Of a stretch of DNA of 64,000 nt, positions 2,935 to 54,955 are shown in pieces. Positions within the stretch are counted from its first letter, which is position 1. Every line of letters starts with the position of its first letter. The notes below the pieces were generated by a model. That model made no database searches. It saw only the letters and a program-made list of their open reading frames with translations, and had not been told where the DNA came from. The DNA is taken from contig DYGI01000001.1 of NCBI GenBank assembly GCA_020724805.1, positions 175,157-239,156 on the forward strand, given 5' to 3'. The position numbers and the translations under genes are program-made. This stretch comes from Candidatus Microgenomatus sp. (lineage in GTDB: Bacteria; Patescibacteriota; Minisyncoccia; UBA6257; GWB1-50-10).

Positions 2935-3115
2935 GTGCGGGATGGGAGAGATCGGCTTCGCCTCTCGCTTCGCTCGGGCCCCTCGGTCATGAGTCCTCGG
3001 GGTCGAATGACTAGCCACCGCCTCGCCGTGCCTGCGGCACATGCTCCGGCGTTCGATTCTCCACGCGAGCCAAGCAGTTGGCTCGCTCATCCGCAATATA
3101 GAATGTACTTATTAG
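2935..3115 (-). repeat. tRNA-linked element, Gly copy (family member 1)
   Basis: About 180 nt immediately 3' of tRNA-Gly. Contains an inverted T-arm copy (plus-strand ctccggcgttcgattctcc) and a 22-nt hairpin gcgagccaagcagttggctcgc. Ends with a 15-nt direct copy (gtgcgggatgggaga, 2935-2949) of the tRNA 3' end (3115-3129). Homologous to the elements at 5776-5930 and 54222-54370. Confidence 0.6.
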
Positions 3116-3186
3116 TGCGGGATGGGAGAATCGAACTCCCGCTCTCAGTTTGGAAAACTGACGTTCTGCCACTAAACTAATCCCGC
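3116..3186 (-). tRNA. tRNA-Gly (anticodon TCC)
   Basis: Cloverleaf GCGGGAT-TA-GTTT-AGTGGCA-GAAC-G-TCAGT-TTTCCAA-ACTGA-GAGC-GGGAG-TTCGATT-CTCCC-ATCCCGC-A with a 4-nt variable loop. No encoded CCA. The loop could be mis-read as CCA (Trp), but the stem register gives TCC. Confidence 0.75.
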
Positions 3187-3262: not shown

Positions 3263-3886
3263 ATGATGGGCTCGATGAATTTTGCGAAGCTCAAAACACC
3301 AAAAATACTGATGCGTGCCGCACTCCTTCTTGTAGGGGTGGGGCTGCTCGCGTATTTGGTGGGTTCGAGTGTGGCGGCATCGCGCCTCCCCGAGGAATTT
3401 GTGCGCGCACGTCAAAATGCCGCACTTACAAGTCAGGACATCGTGGACCTCACCAAACTCACGAGCGAACGACTTGCCGAAGTGAATCTTTTGGAGTTGA
3501 AGGGCGACATCGTGCGGGCGCTTACGGTGGTTGCAGATGCGCGCACTTCAAACCAAGCCGCCTACAGTAAGGCGTTCGAGCTTACTCAGGATCTCCAAGA
3601 GCTTGCGAAGTCGCTCGGTGGAGTCCCTTCGATAGCCAAGCAGCGGGAGGGTTCCGAGGCAGTTGCCATTGAACTTTCGCTTGTGTCCGAGTTTATCATC
3701 TATACCCAGAAGGTGGATACATTTTTGGACGCACTTGAACGCGCCATTCGTTTCAATGTTGAATCGAATCGCGCTGCTGCGGCGGCCGCACTCGACGAGG
3801 TGAACGCGAAGGTGGTCTCTATCAACGCGCTGAATAATGCGTTTCGGAGAGCCATAGGAACCTTCGACGCTCCGGAAGGGGAATAG
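3263..3886 (+). CDS. hypothetical membrane-anchored protein
   Basis: 207 aa. N-terminal TM/signal segment (AALLLVGVGLLAYLVGSSVAA), rest Ala/Leu-rich helical. Start ambiguous (M at 3263, 3266, 3275 or 3311). Confidence 0.45.
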   Translation: MMGSMNFAKLKTPKILMRAALLLVGVGLLAYLVGSSVAASRLPEEFVRARQNAALTSQDIVDLTKLTSERLAEVNLLELKGDIVRALTVVADARTSNQAAYSKAFELTQDLQELAKSLGGVPSIAKQREGSEAVAIELSLVSEFIIYTQKVDTFLDALERAIRFNVESNRAAAAAALDEVNAKVVSINALNNAFRRAIGTFDAPEGE

Positions 3887-3968
3887 AAGGCGTTCCCGGC
3901 GATACGGCAAAAAAAGAGCCCGCGACCTACTTGGTCGGGGCTCACACGTCTTGTTGCGCGCACCTTTT

Positions 3969-4903: not shown

Positions 4904-4912
4904 CAAGCAAGG

Positions 4913-4934
4913 AAATATGCGAAAGGCATATTTT
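4913..4934 (+). terminator. rho-independent terminator after tRNA-Arg
   Basis: aaatatgc-gaaag-gcatattt plus T. Confidence 0.55.
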
Positions 4935-4957
4935 CGAGCGCGGGCGCCTGGCCGTAA

Positions 4958-4971
4958 GTACCGGGGACAAG
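4958..4971 (+). repeat. direct partial copy of the tRNA-Arg 3' end (mini version of the tRNA-linked duplication)
   Basis: gtaccggggacaag, versus tRNA 3' end ctaccggggggacaag about 65 nt upstream. Confidence 0.35.
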
Positions 4972-5775: not shown

Positions 5776-5930
5776 TCTTTGTGCCGCGGGAGGGAATCGC
5801 CTGCAAGTTCCTCTCTGCGGACTCGCAGGCCGCCCCTCGGTCGCATGCGCGACCTGCGGTCTTCGATTTCCGATCACGAGTCGCCCCGCGGCTCGCTTCC
5901 CGCGTGACTGCGTTCACTAGCGTTCTCTTG
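5776..5930 (-). repeat. tRNA-linked element, Phe copy (family member 2)
   Basis: 3' of tRNA-Phe. Ends with a 24-nt direct copy (tctttgtgccgcgggagggaatcg, 5776-5799, one indel) of the tRNA 3' region (5926-5948). Shares blocks with the Gly copy: gcccctcggtc(gc)atg, cctgcgg..ttcgatt(t/c)c. Confidence 0.5.
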
Positions 5931-6002
5931 TGCCGCGGGAGGGAATCGAACCCCCGACGCCAGCCTCTTCAGGGCTGCGCTCTACCACTGAGCTACCGCG
6001 GC
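5931..6002 (-). tRNA. tRNA-Phe (anticodon GAA)
   Basis: GCCGCGG-TA-GCTC-AGTGGTA-GAGC-G-CAGCC-CTGAAGA-GGCTG-GCGTC-GGGGG-TTCGATT-CCCTC-CCGCGGC-A; no CCA. Confidence 0.85.
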
Positions 6003-51743: not shown

Positions 51744-52893
51744 CGGCACGTTTCTCGTGCGCCACGCGTTTACCCGCCCCATGGCGGGTTTCCGACGCGG
51801 GGTCATGGTGGATGTGGAAGATGCGACCCATGCGCTTCGTGAAGTGGCGCTTGAGTTGAAAAAAGTAGGGAGGCGCGCGATGACAAACGTTTTTGTGAAT
51901 GTGGCAAGCGAGCACGTGCGCGCGCGGCTCTCGCGCGGCATTGTGGCGGTAGCGCGTGCGGACCAAGAGATACAAGACGAAGACATCGAGCGGGTGATAG
52001 AAGCATCACGCGCATTGAAACTTCCTCCAAATGCCACCGTGCTCCATTCGATTGTGCGCGAATATTTTGTGGACGATGTCGGCGACATTGCGGACCCTCT
52101 CGGGATGAATGGAAGCCGACTCGAGGTGTCCACGCTTGTGGTGGAGGCGTTCGCTCCCCATGTGAATCTTCTTGTAAAGGGACTCGATCGAGTGGGGTTG
52201 AAGGTGGGAGGACTCATTTTCAACCCGCTTGCGGCCGCAAAAAGCGCGCTTTCGAAACGCCAGCGCGAGCTCGGGTGCATTCTCATTGATTTCGGTATGG
52301 GCACTACCTCGTTCGTGATGTACGACGAGGGAAAAGTGACCCACATGAAAAGCGTGCCGGTGGGAATGGGGCACGTGACGAACGATATTGCGGTAGGGTT
52401 GAGAACTTCCATCGATGTGGCGGAACGTTTGAAGCTCGAATTTGGCGCTGCCACGACGCGCGACGTGAATCGGCGTGAAACAATCCCGCTCCACGACTAC
52501 GACCCTTCGTCGGACCGCGAAGTGACGAAGCGTTTCCTTGCGGAGATCGTTGAAGTGCGTCTCGAGGAGATATTGGGACTCATAAAAGCCGAGATACGCG
52601 GCATGGAACGGAGTTTGGAATTTCCCGGCGGGGCGGTGCTCGTGGGCGGTGGCGCAAAACTCCCCGGTCTCCCCGCGCTTGTGCGTGCGGAACTCAAGAT
52701 GCCGGTGCAGATCGGCATTCCGTACCTCGATGATTTTGTGATAGAAAATTCCGCATACCGCGAGCTTCTCGAAGACCCTCGCGCGGCGACGGTAACCGGG
52801 CTGGTGTTGTGGGGAGGAAGCGAGAGGGAGAAGGAAATCGTTCCGGGAGGAGGGGCATGGTGGAGGAAGTTGATTGGATACCTCAAGCCGTAG
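51670..52893 (+). CDS. ftsA: cell division protein FtsA
   Basis: 407 aa actin-like ATPase. LTGLDVGSSTVRAVVVE, LIDFGMGTTSFVMYDEG, VLVGGGAKLPGL. Overlaps ybeY by 74 nt in a different frame. Confidence 0.85.
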   Translation: MAYTLTGLDVGSSTVRAVVVENTRDGTFLVRHAFTRPMAGFRRGVMVDVEDATHALREVALELKKVGRRAMTNVFVNVASEHVRARLSRGIVAVARADQEIQDEDIERVIEASRALKLPPNATVLHSIVREYFVDDVGDIADPLGMNGSRLEVSTLVVEAFAPHVNLLVKGLDRVGLKVGGLIFNPLAAAKSALSKRQRELGCILIDFGMGTTSFVMYDEGKVTHMKSVPVGMGHVTNDIAVGLRTSIDVAERLKLEFGAATTRDVNRRETIPLHDYDPSSDREVTKRFLAEIVEVRLEEILGLIKAEIRGMERSLEFPGGAVLVGGGAKLPGLPALVRAELKMPVQIGIPYLDDFVIENSAYRELLEDPRAATVTGLVLWGGSEREKEIVPGGGAWWRKLIGYLKP

Positions 52894-52915
52894 TACGCTT
52901 TTCATACGATTGCTT

Positions 52916-54172
52916 ATGGCAAAGAAACGACGCACAAAGAAGAAAGTTCCGCCGAAAAAGATGGCGGTACCCCGCGTGAAAAAAGGGAAGGGCACGTTCA
53001 CGCGCATTAAGGTGGTGGGCGTGGGCGGCGGAGGAGGGAATGCGGTGACCCGCATGATGGCGGAGAGCGACCGCATCCGCGGCGTGGAATTCATTGCGGT
53101 GAATACCGACGCGCAAGACCTCGACCACGCGAGCGCGCATCGGAAGATATATATCGGGCGCGCACTCACGCATGGGCTTGGCGCGGGAATGAATCCGGAA
53201 ATAGGAAAGCAGGCGGCCGAGGAAAACCGTTCGGAACTTGGCGAAGCGCTTGATGGTGCGGACGTTATTTTTCTCACCGCAGGGTTCGGGGGAGGCACCG
53301 GCACCGGCGCGCTTCCGGTGATTGCCGAAGTGGCGCGCGAGAAGGGAATTCTCACACTCGCGGTTGTCACACGTCCGTTCACTTTTGAAGGTGGCCAGCG
53401 GATGACCATTGCGAACGAAGGTCTCGCACGTTTGAAGGATAAGGTGGATGCGTTGGTCGTTATTCCGAACGACCGGATTTTCAATATCATCGATAAAGAC
53501 ACTTCGGTGACTCGCGCGTTCGGTCACATCGACGACGTGTTGAAAAGTGCGGTGAAAGCGATTGCGGACCTTGTGAATGTGCCCGGCATCATCAATATCG
53601 ATTTCGCCGACATTAAAACGACGATGAAGGATGCGGGAACGACTTTGATTGGCATTGGCGTGGCTTCCGGTCCCGAACGGGGAGCGAAAGCCATGGAATC
53701 CGCCATCAATTCGCCCCTCCTCGAAACCTCAATGGAAGGGGCGCGCGGGCTACTTTTCAGCATCTCGGGCGGGCGCGACCTCAAGATGGCCGAGGTGCAC
53801 GACATTGCAAAAGCGGTGGCAGGGAATTTGGACCCTGGGGCACGCGTTATTTTCGGCGCATATTACGATCGCGGACTCTCCGAGAAAAGCATCAAAGTGA
53901 CGGTGATTGCGACCGGTTTCTCTGGGAGCTGGTCCGGAGGAAGCCGCCTTCCTCTCCAACCGCTCTTCGTGAAGGATATGGCTTCTCCCCCTGCGAGAGC
54001 AAAAAAGGAAACGCCGGCGGACTCACCAGCAGGGATGCGCGCGTCCGTCGGACGGGGAGTGGTCAGGGAAACAGATGAGGAGGCGGAGCGGGAAGAGCCG
54101 GCGTCTCCCGCGCCATCGAAAGAAGATACGTGGGATATCCCCGCATTTCTACGGAAGAAAAAAAGGAGATGA
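52916..54172 (+). CDS. ftsZ: cell division protein FtsZ
   Basis: ORF 52874 (TTG) trimmed to the first ATG after the ftsA stop. IKVVGVGGGGGNAV, tubulin signature GGGTGTGALPVIAEVARE, basic C-terminal tail. Confidence 0.95.
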   Translation: MAKKRRTKKKVPPKKMAVPRVKKGKGTFTRIKVVGVGGGGGNAVTRMMAESDRIRGVEFIAVNTDAQDLDHASAHRKIYIGRALTHGLGAGMNPEIGKQAAEENRSELGEALDGADVIFLTAGFGGGTGTGALPVIAEVAREKGILTLAVVTRPFTFEGGQRMTIANEGLARLKDKVDALVVIPNDRIFNIIDKDTSVTRAFGHIDDVLKSAVKAIADLVNVPGIINIDFADIKTTMKDAGTTLIGIGVASGPERGAKAMESAINSPLLETSMEGARGLLFSISGGRDLKMAEVHDIAKAVAGNLDPGARVIFGAYYDRGLSEKSIKVTVIATGFSGSWSGGSRLPLQPLFVKDMASPPARAKKETPADSPAGMRASVGRGVVRETDEEAEREEPASPAPSKEDTWDIPAFLRKKKRR

Positions 54173-54173
54173 T

Positions 54174-54200
54174 AAAAACCGCCCCCAGGGCGGTTTTTGT
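54174..54200. terminator. bidirectional terminator after ftsZ
   Basis: aaaaaccgccc-cca-gggcggttttt, a perfect 11-bp stem. Confidence 0.7.
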
Positions 54201-54221
54201 GTTTGCACTGGATATTTCGAA

Positions 54222-54370
54222 GTGTGCCTCCTGAAGGGGATCTCCTTCGCCTCTCGGCGCGCCGGCGCGCACTCGGGCTAGGCACCGCCTCGCGTGCCGT
54301 TCTTCTGAACGGCACAGTCTCCGGCGTTCGATCCCTGCCGCGCATCGAGCAGTCGATGCGCTAGTTGGTG
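54222..54370 (-). repeat. tRNA-linked element, Lys copy (family member 3, best conserved)
   Basis: 3' of tRNA-Lys. Direct 12-nt copy gtgtgcctcctg (54222-54233) of the tRNA 3' end (54368-54379). Blocks shared with the Gly copy: cttcgcctctcg, caccgcctcgc(c)gtgcc, ctccggcgttcgat, hairpin gcgcatcgagcagtcgatgcgc. Inverted T-arm copy ttcgatccctgc. Confidence 0.6.
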
Positions 54371-54443
54371 TGCCTCCTGCAGGGATCGAACCTGCGACCG
54401 TCTCCTTAAAAGGGAGCTGCTCTACCAACTGAGCTAAGGAGGC
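54371..54443 (-). tRNA. tRNA-Lys (anticodon TTT)
   Basis: GCCTCCT-TA-GCTC-AGTTGGTA-GAGC-A-GCTCC-CTTTTAA-GGAGA-CGGTC-GCAGG-TTCGATC-CCTGC-AGGAGGC-A; no CCA. Confidence 0.85.
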
Positions 54444-54540
54444 AGTTGGTTTTTTCTATAGTACCTGCGGATTTCGGTTTTCGCAATCGTTGGCACGTGC
54501 CCCGCGAACTTATACGAGTGGAATAAATTTCTCTCCGAGT

Positions 54541-54568
54541 AGCGTGGTGTAATTAATTACACCACGCT
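54541..54568. promoter_or_regulatory. perfect 14-bp-arm palindrome in the divergent tRNA-Lys/tRNA-Asn promoter region
   Basis: agcgtggtgtaatt|aattacaccacgct. Confidence 0.4.
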
Positions 54569-54653
54569 GTCATATGCAGTGGGCACATGAGAGGAGAGTT
54601 GAAAATGAAGGAGCGGTATAGCACAATAGGAACGCACTTTTAACAGTGTGTAT

Positions 54654-54725
54654 TCCCCGGTAGCTCAATGGTAGAGCGCCTCGCTGTTAACGAGTGGGTT
54701 GTAGGTTCGAATCCTACCCGGGGAG
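54654..54725 (+). tRNA. tRNA-Asn (anticodon GTT)
   Basis: TCCCCGG-TA-GCTC-AATGGTA-GAGC-G-CCTCG-CTGTTAA-CGAGT-GGGTT-GTAGG-TTCGAAT-CCTAC-CCGGGGA-G; no CCA. Confidence 0.8.
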
Positions 54726-54742
54726 CAAGCGAGTGAAATGTA

Positions 54743-54765
54743 AAGCCGCCGTAAGGCGGTTTTAT
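54743..54765 (+). terminator. terminator after tRNA-Asn
   Basis: aagccgcc-gtaa-ggcggtttta. Confidence 0.55.
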
Positions 54766-54955
54766 ATTTCCGAGCGCAGCCCCCGGGCATCTGAGCGAAG
54801 CGAGGATACCAGGGGAGCACGGGCGCTTTTGTTATTGAAACGAGGCGAACCCGGGCAAGCGTAGCGCACCCAGCGGAGCAAAACAAAAATATCCTGCCTT
54901 GTGCGGCATCCCCATAGGTCGCCGTTTTTTCATACGAAGGGTATAAAATGAGAAC

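Follow-up and report, generated by a model that had tools for sequence, protein, structure and literature searches.

Directly 3′ of the transfer RNA (tRNA) gene tRNA-Lys(UUU), in a 64,000-nucleotide (nt) stretch of a Candidatus Microgenomatus genome (contig DYGI01000001.1, positions 175,157 to 239,156; this whole stretch is called the window below), lies a compact element built from a three-way junction and two arms that repeat parts of the neighbouring tRNA. We show that it is a conserved single-stranded fold on the tRNA strand, with both arms matched to the tRNA, and that it belongs to an apparently undescribed family spread over many lineages of the Patescibacteria. These form a huge and poorly understood branch of the bacteria, with minimal genomes and single-copy tRNA genes. 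The element is real, widespread and structurally well supported, whereas what it does we infer from sequence. Our leaning, held tentatively and at a little less than an even chance, is towards a non-autonomous, intron-like selfish element of tRNA 3′ trailers, or of the sequences that run from the T-loop to the tRNA 3′ end.

The tRNA-Lys element and its family

The tRNA-Lys gene is intact (54370-54443, minus strand; found by ARAGORN and scored at 69.5 bits by the Rfam tRNA model), and its 3′ part is copied in the element, which occupies 54199-54369 immediately downstream on the same strand. The GC content of the element is 0.69, against 0.53 for the window. A 12-mer, GTGTGCCTCCTG, stands at 54222-54233 and again at 54368-54379, a direct repeat that lengthens to 17 nt with one mismatch (54222-54238 versus 54368-54384). 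In addition, GTTCGATCCCTGC at 54326-54338 forms a perfect 13-nt inverted repeat with the real T-arm at 54379-54391. By our own estimate, chance would produce an exact direct repeat of 12 nt fewer than 0.01 times within 350 nt, and the same holds for an inverted repeat of 13 nt.

The original prediction, made from the letters of this DNA, had described a repeated element linked to tRNA genes. Its parts (the ftsZ terminator, the 12-mer, an inverted copy of the T-arm, a 22-nt hairpin and the minus-strand tRNA-Lys) can all be located in the window, and the linkage to tRNA genes stands; what it missed is the scale, as the element is no local oddity but one member of a Patescibacteria-wide family with a three-way-junction core. 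It had also placed a backbone of about 135 nt ahead of the T-arm copy. The length is right, with 134 nt between the two 12-mers, but the position is not, as the T-arm copy starts 93 nt after the first 12-mer.

The extent of the family was measured in two ways. A scan of one genome per species for the motif GCCTCGC-N(8-38)-CTCCGGCGTTCGAT returned at least 119 loci. About 100 of the matches listed are from Patescibacteria of many lineages, namely Paceibacteria, Kaiser-, Taylor-, Uhr-, Woese-, Kerfeld-, Magasanik-, Yanofsky-, Portnoy- and Jorgensenbacteria, together with bins labelled Saccharibacteria. A further 20 or so of those listed come from high-GC genomes outside the candidate phyla radiation (CPR); these score at most 25 bits with a covariance model (CM) of the element, and we take them to be chance matches. 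The CM itself identifies 130 copies at 25-123 bits, nearly all of them in Patescibacteria, with most CPR copies at 45-123 bits and the Lys copy at 78.1 bits (E = 3e-20). Members of the family measure about 150-200 nt and contain no open reading frame (ORF), and the sequence of their core is strongly conserved over deep Patescibacteria lineages.

A scan of 2.9 million viral contigs found no match to the motif, and thus gave no sign of carriage by phages. Rfam 15 returned no family for the element when the whole window was scanned at gathering thresholds, and scans by E-value with the Lys copy and the two best family members produced only noise, well under those thresholds. We found no description of the element in the literature, where the TIGR-Tas paper provides a conceptual parallel only.

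The association with tRNA genes is close. A co-oriented tRNA lies at most 150 nt upstream in 96 of the 130 copies, and at most 400 nt upstream in 108, the added ones being tandem copies. Several apparent orphans are actually located 3′ of tRNAs that ARAGORN missed, and in-silico splicing of the 34 copies with no adjacent tRNA revealed no hidden interrupted or split tRNA. The tRNA-linked copies span 29 isoacceptors and 18 amino acids.

The boundaries of the direct repeat are sharply placed. Among 53 copies with a clean anchor, it starts at tRNA position 56 in 22 and at position 57 in 14, and only once 5′ of position 56, at position 55; its end is 1-3 nt past the discriminator N73 in 32 copies. 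The direct copy therefore represents the 3′-terminal 18-20 nt of the tRNA; in this genome it tracks the genomic sequence (…A-CAC) and not the added CCA. The second arm is antisense: its sequence reverse-complements the T-stem 3′ strand and does not reproduce the 5′ strand, as can be seen from G·U positions (e.g. in L031, L044, L068 and L121; L numbers are our locus labels). This rules out a miniature tRNA derived by deletion from a tRNA gene. The antisense arm fits the real tRNA at least as well as it fits the distal copy (better in 26 copies, worse in 4), a difference due in part to a subfamily with an extra mini-hairpin in helix P0 (see below). A further arm antisense to the acceptor strand, which would close a complete acceptor-like stem, is well kept in about 20% of copies; with such low retention, a ‘mini-tRNA’ closed by an acceptor stem was rejected as the general form.

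Folding strand and anatomy of the fold

The original prediction was a plus-strand reading, and this has to be inverted, because fold energies and the counts of G·A and G·U pairs both assign the fold to the tRNA-sense strand, which is the minus strand here. When both strands of 80 copies were folded, the tRNA-sense strand was the more stable in 74 for each of the two variable arms (Wilcoxon p ~1e-12). Folded alone, the Lys element has z = -4.19 for the minus strand, against z = -2.83 for the plus strand. In the paired columns of the 130-copy alignment, G·A or A·G combinations number 418 versus 50 for C·U or U·C, and G·U pairs 118 versus 57 for A·C. Many helices contain CGAG/CGAG units, which are tandem G·A pairs on the tRNA strand and poor C·U/U·C mismatches on the opposite one; AT-rich members have Watson-Crick pairs in their place.

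The order of parts on the tRNA strand is tRNA, spacer, hairpin P5, 1-2 nt, antisense arm, arm P4, GU, arm P1-P2-P3 and the distal copy of the tRNA end. The spacer, measured between the tRNA end and the first position of the model, has a median of 55 nt. P5 is a perfect-stem hairpin in 117 of 129 copies, with a modal stem of 9 base pairs (bp) and CUGC as the commonest loop, followed by CUUC. The antisense arm (12-13 nt) has two parts, a segment complementary to positions 61-65 on the T-stem 3′ strand and then AAUCGAA, which is complementary to the T-loop. P4 consists of an invariant CGCC/GGCG helix, tandem G·A pairs, GCG/CGC, a two-nucleotide bulge and a helix of 7-9 bp with variable sequence. 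P1-P2-P3 is formed by GCCC/GGGC, GCC/GGC, a bulged A and a 10-bp helix, which has either two tandem G·A pairs or Watson-Crick pairs and is capped by a GACG or GGAA loop. Finally, (C)GAUU and the T-stem 3′ strand of the distal copy pair with the antisense arm to form the closing helix, P0, after which the acceptor 3′ strand, the discriminator and C(CA) are single-stranded. The three-way junction so formed is about 90 nt long, with tandem G·A in both of its arms.

Covariation provides strong evidence for this fold. In an ungapped seed of 31 sequences, which was not fitted to the model, double changes occur at 26 of the 40 pairs and 84.9% of cells are paired, compared with at most 44% when the partners are slid. 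The 130-copy alignment has double (compensatory) changes at 39 of 40 pairs and 86.1% of cells paired, against at most 43% with slid partners, although it was fitted to the model and is hence biased towards the structure. A kissing interaction between the P5 and P4 loops was considered and rejected for want of covariation (7 of 76 observed, 10.4 expected).

There are some variations on this plan. A subfamily (L097 4710-4825, L006 7361-7475, L019 2415-2529 and L081 7769-7883) has an extra mini-hairpin in P0, e.g. AAGCGUACCCGCAGU, located between GAU and the T-stem 3′ strand. What had looked like an ‘old tRNA end’ within L097 and L006 proved on inspection to be this mini-hairpin and no relic of an earlier target. 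The spacers are also variable. Those of L024, L042, L019, L096, L114 and others hold a palindromic hairpin, often terminator-like, whose stem is continuous with the helix that the acceptor 3′ strand forms with the antisense-acceptor arm; because of this continuity, the inverted duplication can take in the tRNA's own trailer. A purine-rich motif (e.g. GCGAAGCGAACGAAGUGA) is found in the spacers of L025, L040, L088, L093, L123 and others, and a simple count revealed no enrichment that would make a purine-rich GNGAA motif a general feature.

The Lys copy, read along the minus strand, follows the family plan. A spacer of 54362-54369, in which the sequence and a terminator scan of spacers reveal no terminator, separates the tRNA 3′ end from P5 at 54340-54361. 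This is the 22-nt perfect hairpin of the original prediction (plus strand gcgcatcga-gcag-tcgatgcgc) and the family's conserved 5′ hairpin, folding into a perfect 9-bp stem with a CUGC loop on the sense strand. The antisense arm (54326-54338), identified as the 13-nt inverted repeat and composed of a segment labelled X'b followed by AUCGAAC, is a perfect complement of the tRNA-Lys T-loop and T-stem 3′ strand and provides the 5′ strand of P0. The two arms of the junction were assigned by CM alignment and covariation: P4 at 54287-54325, and P1-P2-P3 with the GGU junction at 54243-54286. Sequence comparison places the distal direct copy of the tRNA 3′ part (GAUCCCCUUCAGGAGGCACAC) at 54222-54242; its acceptor 3′ strand and ACAC are exact, and its T-stem part has decayed (CCCCTT versus CCCTGC).

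Within P4, a variable hairpin at 54294-54315 stands between the invariant CGCCGGAG and GCGAGGCG. This hairpin had been described as anticodon-like, with a 7-nt loop. It is in fact GTGCCGTT-CTTCTG-AACGGCAC, with a stem of 8-9 bp and a loop of 4-6 nt; one A had been counted twice in the loop as quoted, and in the family P4 is an arm of variable sequence with no conserved 7-nt loop. The Lys element had also been called the best-preserved copy in the window. That holds for the core, with CM scores of 78.1 bits for the Lys copy, 44.7 for a Gly copy and 15.1 for a Phe copy, but not for the arms, because the distal T-stem part has decayed and the antisense-acceptor arm is absent.

Beyond the distal copy there is a tail at 54199-54221 (minus strand; GTGTTTGCACTG...TTCGAA on the plus strand; alignment A1 and sequences). 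A tail motif, GTGTTTRCACTG … TCGAAGT on the plus strand, is common to the Gly (2900-2934) and Lys (54199-54223) copies; it is not in the Phe copy and was not seen in copies of other genomes. Because the Gly and Lys copies share it, the element as copied in this genome may reach past the tRNA-end repeat. Next comes a bidirectional intrinsic terminator at 54174-54198, an 11-bp perfect inverted repeat with a sense-strand terminator call, which serves ftsZ and probably also a transcript of tRNA-Lys plus element. The element was itself considered as an intrinsic terminator and rejected, as neither P5 nor P4 is followed by a run of T. The terminator scan made for this purpose called only a plus-strand site overlapping part of P4 and the terminator of tRNA-Asn; the true terminator is the one at 54174-54198.

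Gain and loss, and what the element may be

The window holds further copies in various states of preservation. The Gly and Phe copies anticipated by the original prediction both exist, as shown by the CM and by direct repeats. The Gly copy (2935-3086, minus strand; 44.7 bits, E=1e-10) is found 3′ of tRNA-Gly(UCC) at 3115-3186; it reproduces the tRNA 3′ end exactly over 15 nt, and its P3 has a long insertion. The Phe copy (5781-5900, minus strand), 3′ of tRNA-Phe at 5930-6002, is divergent and borderline for the CM (15.1 bits, E=0.04), and repeats the tRNA 3′ end exactly over 20-22 nt. Two plus-strand remnants, each truncated at the 5′ side, follow terminator-like hairpins. One, behind tRNA-Arg (4905-4971; …GCGGGCG…, …CGAGCGCGGGCG…), closes with TACCGGGGACAAG (4959-4971), which reproduces the 3′ end of that tRNA in degenerate form. 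The other, behind tRNA-Asn (54727-54820), ends in GAGCGAAGCGAGG-ATACCAGGGGAGCAC, in which ATACCAGGGGAGCAC (54806-54820) is likewise a degenerate copy of the 3′ end of its own tRNA. In total, an element or its debris is present 3′ of five of the seven tRNA genes in the window.

The Lys copy represents a gain specific to its lineage. Five orthologues of the ftsZ–tRNA-Lys locus (L001, L124, L125, L126 and L127; FtsZ 76-83% identical) are free of the element; there tRNA-Lys comes straight after the ftsZ terminator and the CM finds nothing, and the closest relative (L003/L004) has a truncated remnant only. In metagenome scans with window-specific patterns we found no filled and empty alleles of the same species, and the contig index does not contain the window FtsZ. 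Elsewhere, identical units form tandem arrays (L094, L079, L069 and L100), and unequal crossing-over between the copies of the tRNA end would yield such arrays, and also losses. An orphan copy in L014 (4990-5180) has CACCA at both sides, which is the 3′ end of tRNAs in that genome. This orphan, with no preceding tRNA, has the spacer, P5 and arms of a tRNA-Glu copy of the same metagenome-assembled genome (L007, 1147-1450), and in that tRNA-linked copy the distal arm is broken by an insertion.

Near-identical cores can be found behind unlike tRNAs: L031 Arg and L093 Pro, Arg and Ser in L071 (2767-2873 versus 3569-3674), and Pro and Gly in L032 (2964-3076 versus 3848-3960). These pairs have only the three-way-junction core in common, as P5, arms and flanks differ, and the edges of the shared block are the T-loop-derived AAUCGAA and GAU. 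Either an exchange by gene conversion or a core that moves alone would explain them.

Some observations concern the surroundings of the locus. The ftsZ product (52874-54172) is 79-84% identical to proteins of Candidatus Brennerbacteria, and the ORFs of the window have a housekeeping look from their N-terminal sequences, no domain search having been run. In relatives (L124 7351-10667, L001 11279-14196), DUF4015 and Trp-repressor-like genes lie between tRNA-Lys and tRNA-Asn, the latter directly bordered by a large serine recombinase gene; in the window only 210 nt separate these tRNAs (54370-54726 compared). It looks like an island has been inserted or lost at tRNA-Asn. Several metagenome contigs of relatives (L002, L003, L125 and L126) stop within about 100 nt after ftsZ, in or near tRNA-Lys or an element remnant, which is consistent with assembly breaks at repeated sequence.

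How would an intron-like selfish element of tRNA trailers work? It would share a transcript with its tRNA, made when transcription from the tRNA promoter reads through. The spacer is free of terminators in about 80% of copies; that of the Lys copy has none either, and the ftsZ terminator lies beyond this element. In such a transcript two mutually exclusive folds could form. In fold A the two arms would pair with each other (P0), giving a mimic of a T-stem and acceptor tail capped by the conserved domain and leaving the tRNA free for processing. In fold B the antisense arm would invade the T-loop and T-stem strand of the tRNA (12-13 bp) and the 5′ acceptor strand of the tRNA would pair with the distal copy, so that the element could refold its tRNA. 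That the real T-arm and its inverted copy might pair in a read-through transcript had already been proposed, and RNA folding bears this out: fold B is the predicted minimum-free-energy fold of the Lys transcript (-115.2 kcal/mol, z = -5.95) and is predicted for 77 of 91 read-through transcripts of the family, with pairing between acceptor strand and distal copy in 57 of those. Energy models omit tRNA tertiary structure and co-transcriptional folding, and the prediction is therefore one of capacity, not of occupancy. The element would be harmless, since the gene keeps, or receives, an intact 3′ end; recombination between the two tRNA 3′ ends would duplicate or remove it, and it would occasionally move among tRNA types and then decay. 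The five loci free of the element, the tandem arrays, the orphan in L014, the remnants in the window and the near-identical cores behind unlike tRNAs speak for this proposal.

Several points weigh against this proposal. Copies from the same genome have a median identity of 0.57, versus 0.62 for copies from different genomes, and the most alike between-genome pairs sit behind the same isoacceptor; this looks like long vertical inheritance under structural constraint, as a host function would lead one to expect, and not like recent bursts. Clustering the ORFs of 100 loci revealed no recurrent transposase, integrase or reverse transcriptase family, the largest ORF ‘family’ being probably spurious ORFs across the element itself. 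A terminator-like hairpin stands between tRNA and element in 20 of 96 copies. Both co-transcription and RNA as the folding molecule, in preference to single-stranded DNA, are read from sequence features. The sharing of cores described above fits gene conversion as well as movement. The main unexplained point is that no known mechanism rewrites both arms to fit a new tRNA; template switching or gene conversion at microhomologies of the T-loop and 3′ end could conceivably be such a route.

The most serious rival, which we consider possible though on the doubtful side, is a module that acts in cis on its own tRNA to the benefit of the host. It would be a guide or chaperone borne in the trailer, with an antisense arm that pairs with the nascent T-loop and T-stem and a core that recruits a protein; possible roles include the timing of 3′ or 5′ processing, guidance of T-loop modification and the holding of a spare 3′ end. 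Such a module would have its antisense arm kept matched to the real tRNA despite decay of the distal copy, which is the bias reported above. The conservation of the core over deep lineages also speaks for it, as do same-genome copies that differ by compensatory changes with no recent duplicates among them, and orthologues behind the same isoacceptor that are the most alike. The core has tandem G·A motifs, which are typical protein-binding sites. However, the element is dispensable, as the five close relatives have tRNA-Lys and no element, and three elements in the window are decayed (the Arg and Asn remnants and the divergent Phe copy). Tandem arrays and orphans would be odd for a regulatory module, neither box C/D nor H/ACA motifs are seen by eye, and Rfam has no match.

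A bolder idea, and an unlikely one in our judgement, is that of a programmable, tRNA-templated system specific to the Patescibacteria, with the three-way junction as the core that performs catalysis or loads a protein. Its antisense arm would open the T-arm of a tRNA or tRNA gene, the 3′ end would be exchanged, repaired or copied, and the element would spread by writing target-derived arms. If true, this would be an RNA-guided, self-retargeting mobile element or a tRNA-repair device found in that branch of the bacteria.

Less probable still is an element that acts at the level of DNA, with the tRNA-sense strand folding as single-stranded DNA to become the substrate of a host recombinase or HUH nuclease at the T-loop GTTC|GA. 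Integron attC sites and the attP hairpin of the CTX phage are known to fold in this way. The strand asymmetry (G·A, G·T) would stabilise single-stranded DNA as well, the breakpoints fall exactly 3′ of the T-loop GTTC and helix P0 mimics the target duplex; tandem arrays with no element-encoded enzyme are also seen in elements that exploit host Xer recombinases. Yet the orientation is fixed relative to tRNA transcription, with the element ahead of the terminator, and junctions of several helices, with GNRA-type loops and invariant nucleotides at the junction, are found more typically in RNA. Furthermore, conservative site-specific recombination would not give arms fitted to 29 different tRNAs.

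We think it very improbable that these loci are scars of integrase insertion or excision, i.e. attL/attR remnants of islands or prophages that target tRNA T-loops. A direct repeat from the T-loop to the tRNA 3′ end is the classic signature of T-loop-targeting integrases and is present here, and in relatives the large serine recombinase gene lies beside the neighbouring tRNA-Asn. What lies between the repeats largely refutes this reading, because about 115 nt there make up a conserved fold that shows the covariation noted above and is common to many lineages and tRNA types. Att sites would not be expected to hold an inverted, tRNA-matched arm, the 100 loci have no associated integrase gene and the viral contigs have no motif match. 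A degenerate tRNA pseudogene, or chance repeats, can be dismissed: the element does contain T-loop and acceptor sequences, but neither ARAGORN nor the Rfam tRNA model matches it, its arm is the reverse complement of the 3′ strand with no copy of a 5′ half, and the family core is conserved and unrelated to tRNA.

We believe that the family is of interest on either of the two leading readings, the selfish element or the host module. The first may be a new kind of mobile element that copies its target, the second a further level at which tRNAs are matured or controlled, and either can be tested through what it predicts for processing sites, alternative folds and partner proteins. The CM could be used to annotate hundreds of loci, and the repeated copies could complicate both the annotation of tRNA flanks and metagenome assembly.

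Comparison with known systems

A conserved RNA fold with arms rewritten to fit whichever tRNA precedes it has no described counterpart that we could find. We treat it as a new kind of element because each of the systems compared here has a defining feature that it lacks, the comparison with box C/D and TIGR RNAs excepted. Some candidates were rejected quickly. A tRNA or pseudogene (RF00005) does not account for it, as ARAGORN and Rfam find just seven true tRNAs in the window and an E-value scan of 54100-54900 placed no tRNA match on the element. It is not a miniature inverted-repeat transposable element, as its inverted arms are target-derived and differ per site, its repeat varies from 12 to more than 20 nt and identity within a genome is no higher than between genomes. 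Nor is it a bridge RNA (seekRNA) of IS110/IS1111 elements, with no adjacent recombinase gene and no ORF in its 150-200 nt.

The att sites of T-loop-targeting integrases share with it a duplication from the T-loop to the 3′ end that leaves the gene intact, tandem arrays, and loss by recombination between repeats. The window copies have such repeats, exact over 12 nt for Lys, 15 nt for Gly and 20-22 nt for Phe. Here, however, the repeats enclose only about 130-180 nt, made up of a covarying fold and an inverted arm, integrase and cargo are both absent, and a single core is joined to 29 tRNA ends. An att remnant was accordingly rejected: the 100 loci lack a recurrent recombinase family, and the intervening DNA is conserved and not unrelated from site to site.

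tRNA mimics, such as the tRNA-like domain of transfer-messenger RNA, the bacterial Y RNA YrlA, MALAT1 mascRNA and viral tRNA-like structures, have a T-stem-like helix, an acceptor 3′ strand, a discriminator and (C)CA in common with the element. The likeness extends to the full acceptor-like stem in about 20% of copies and to P5, which is placed like the D and anticodon arms. The differences are that the element copies its neighbour tRNA exactly, that a three-way junction of about 90 nt replaces the T-loop, that there are many copies per genome, each matched to its own tRNA, and that Rfam has no match.

Guide RNAs linked to tRNAs offer another comparison. The intron of archaeal pre-tRNA-Trp is a box C/D guide for the methylation of its own tRNA. 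In plants, dicistronic tRNA–snoRNA (small nucleolar RNA) genes join a guide RNA to a tRNA, according to work cited in PMC12045711 (its refs 66-67). As in these cases, a structured RNA would be part of a tRNA transcript, with 12 nt antisense to that tRNA beside tandem G·A. Unlike them, the element shows no C/D or H/ACA boxes by eye, its complementarity covers the whole T-loop and T-stem strand, and it holds a sense copy of the tRNA end. No C/D consensus is visible by eye in the alignment and no neighbour protein recurs, the proteome not having been searched for Nop or L7Ae.

Group I introns in the anticodon loops of bacterial tRNAs are also structured inserts linked to tRNA genes, with a guide segment (complementary here to positions 54-65) and a history of gain, decay and loss. 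The element differs in lying 3′ of an intact tRNA end, in being too small for a group I fold and in not requiring splicing. With upstream tRNAs intact and no intron model matched, group I, group II and archaeal-type introns were rejected.

A further parallel is with the primer-binding sites of retroviruses and long terminal repeat (LTR) elements, which are complementary to the 3′-terminal ~18-20 nt of a specific tRNA, reaching into the T-loop. In our element P5 interrupts the complement, there are neither LTRs nor a reverse transcriptase, and in this genome the copy is of genomic CAC, not CCA. A retroelement primer-binding site was rejected on similar grounds, as the complement is split, its acceptor part is kept in only about 20% of copies and no reverse transcriptase gene was seen in the 100 loci or among the ORFs of the window. 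The primer-binding sites of retroelements are rewritten from whichever tRNA primes synthesis, and, by analogy, rewriting in this style would be one route to arms that match their target.

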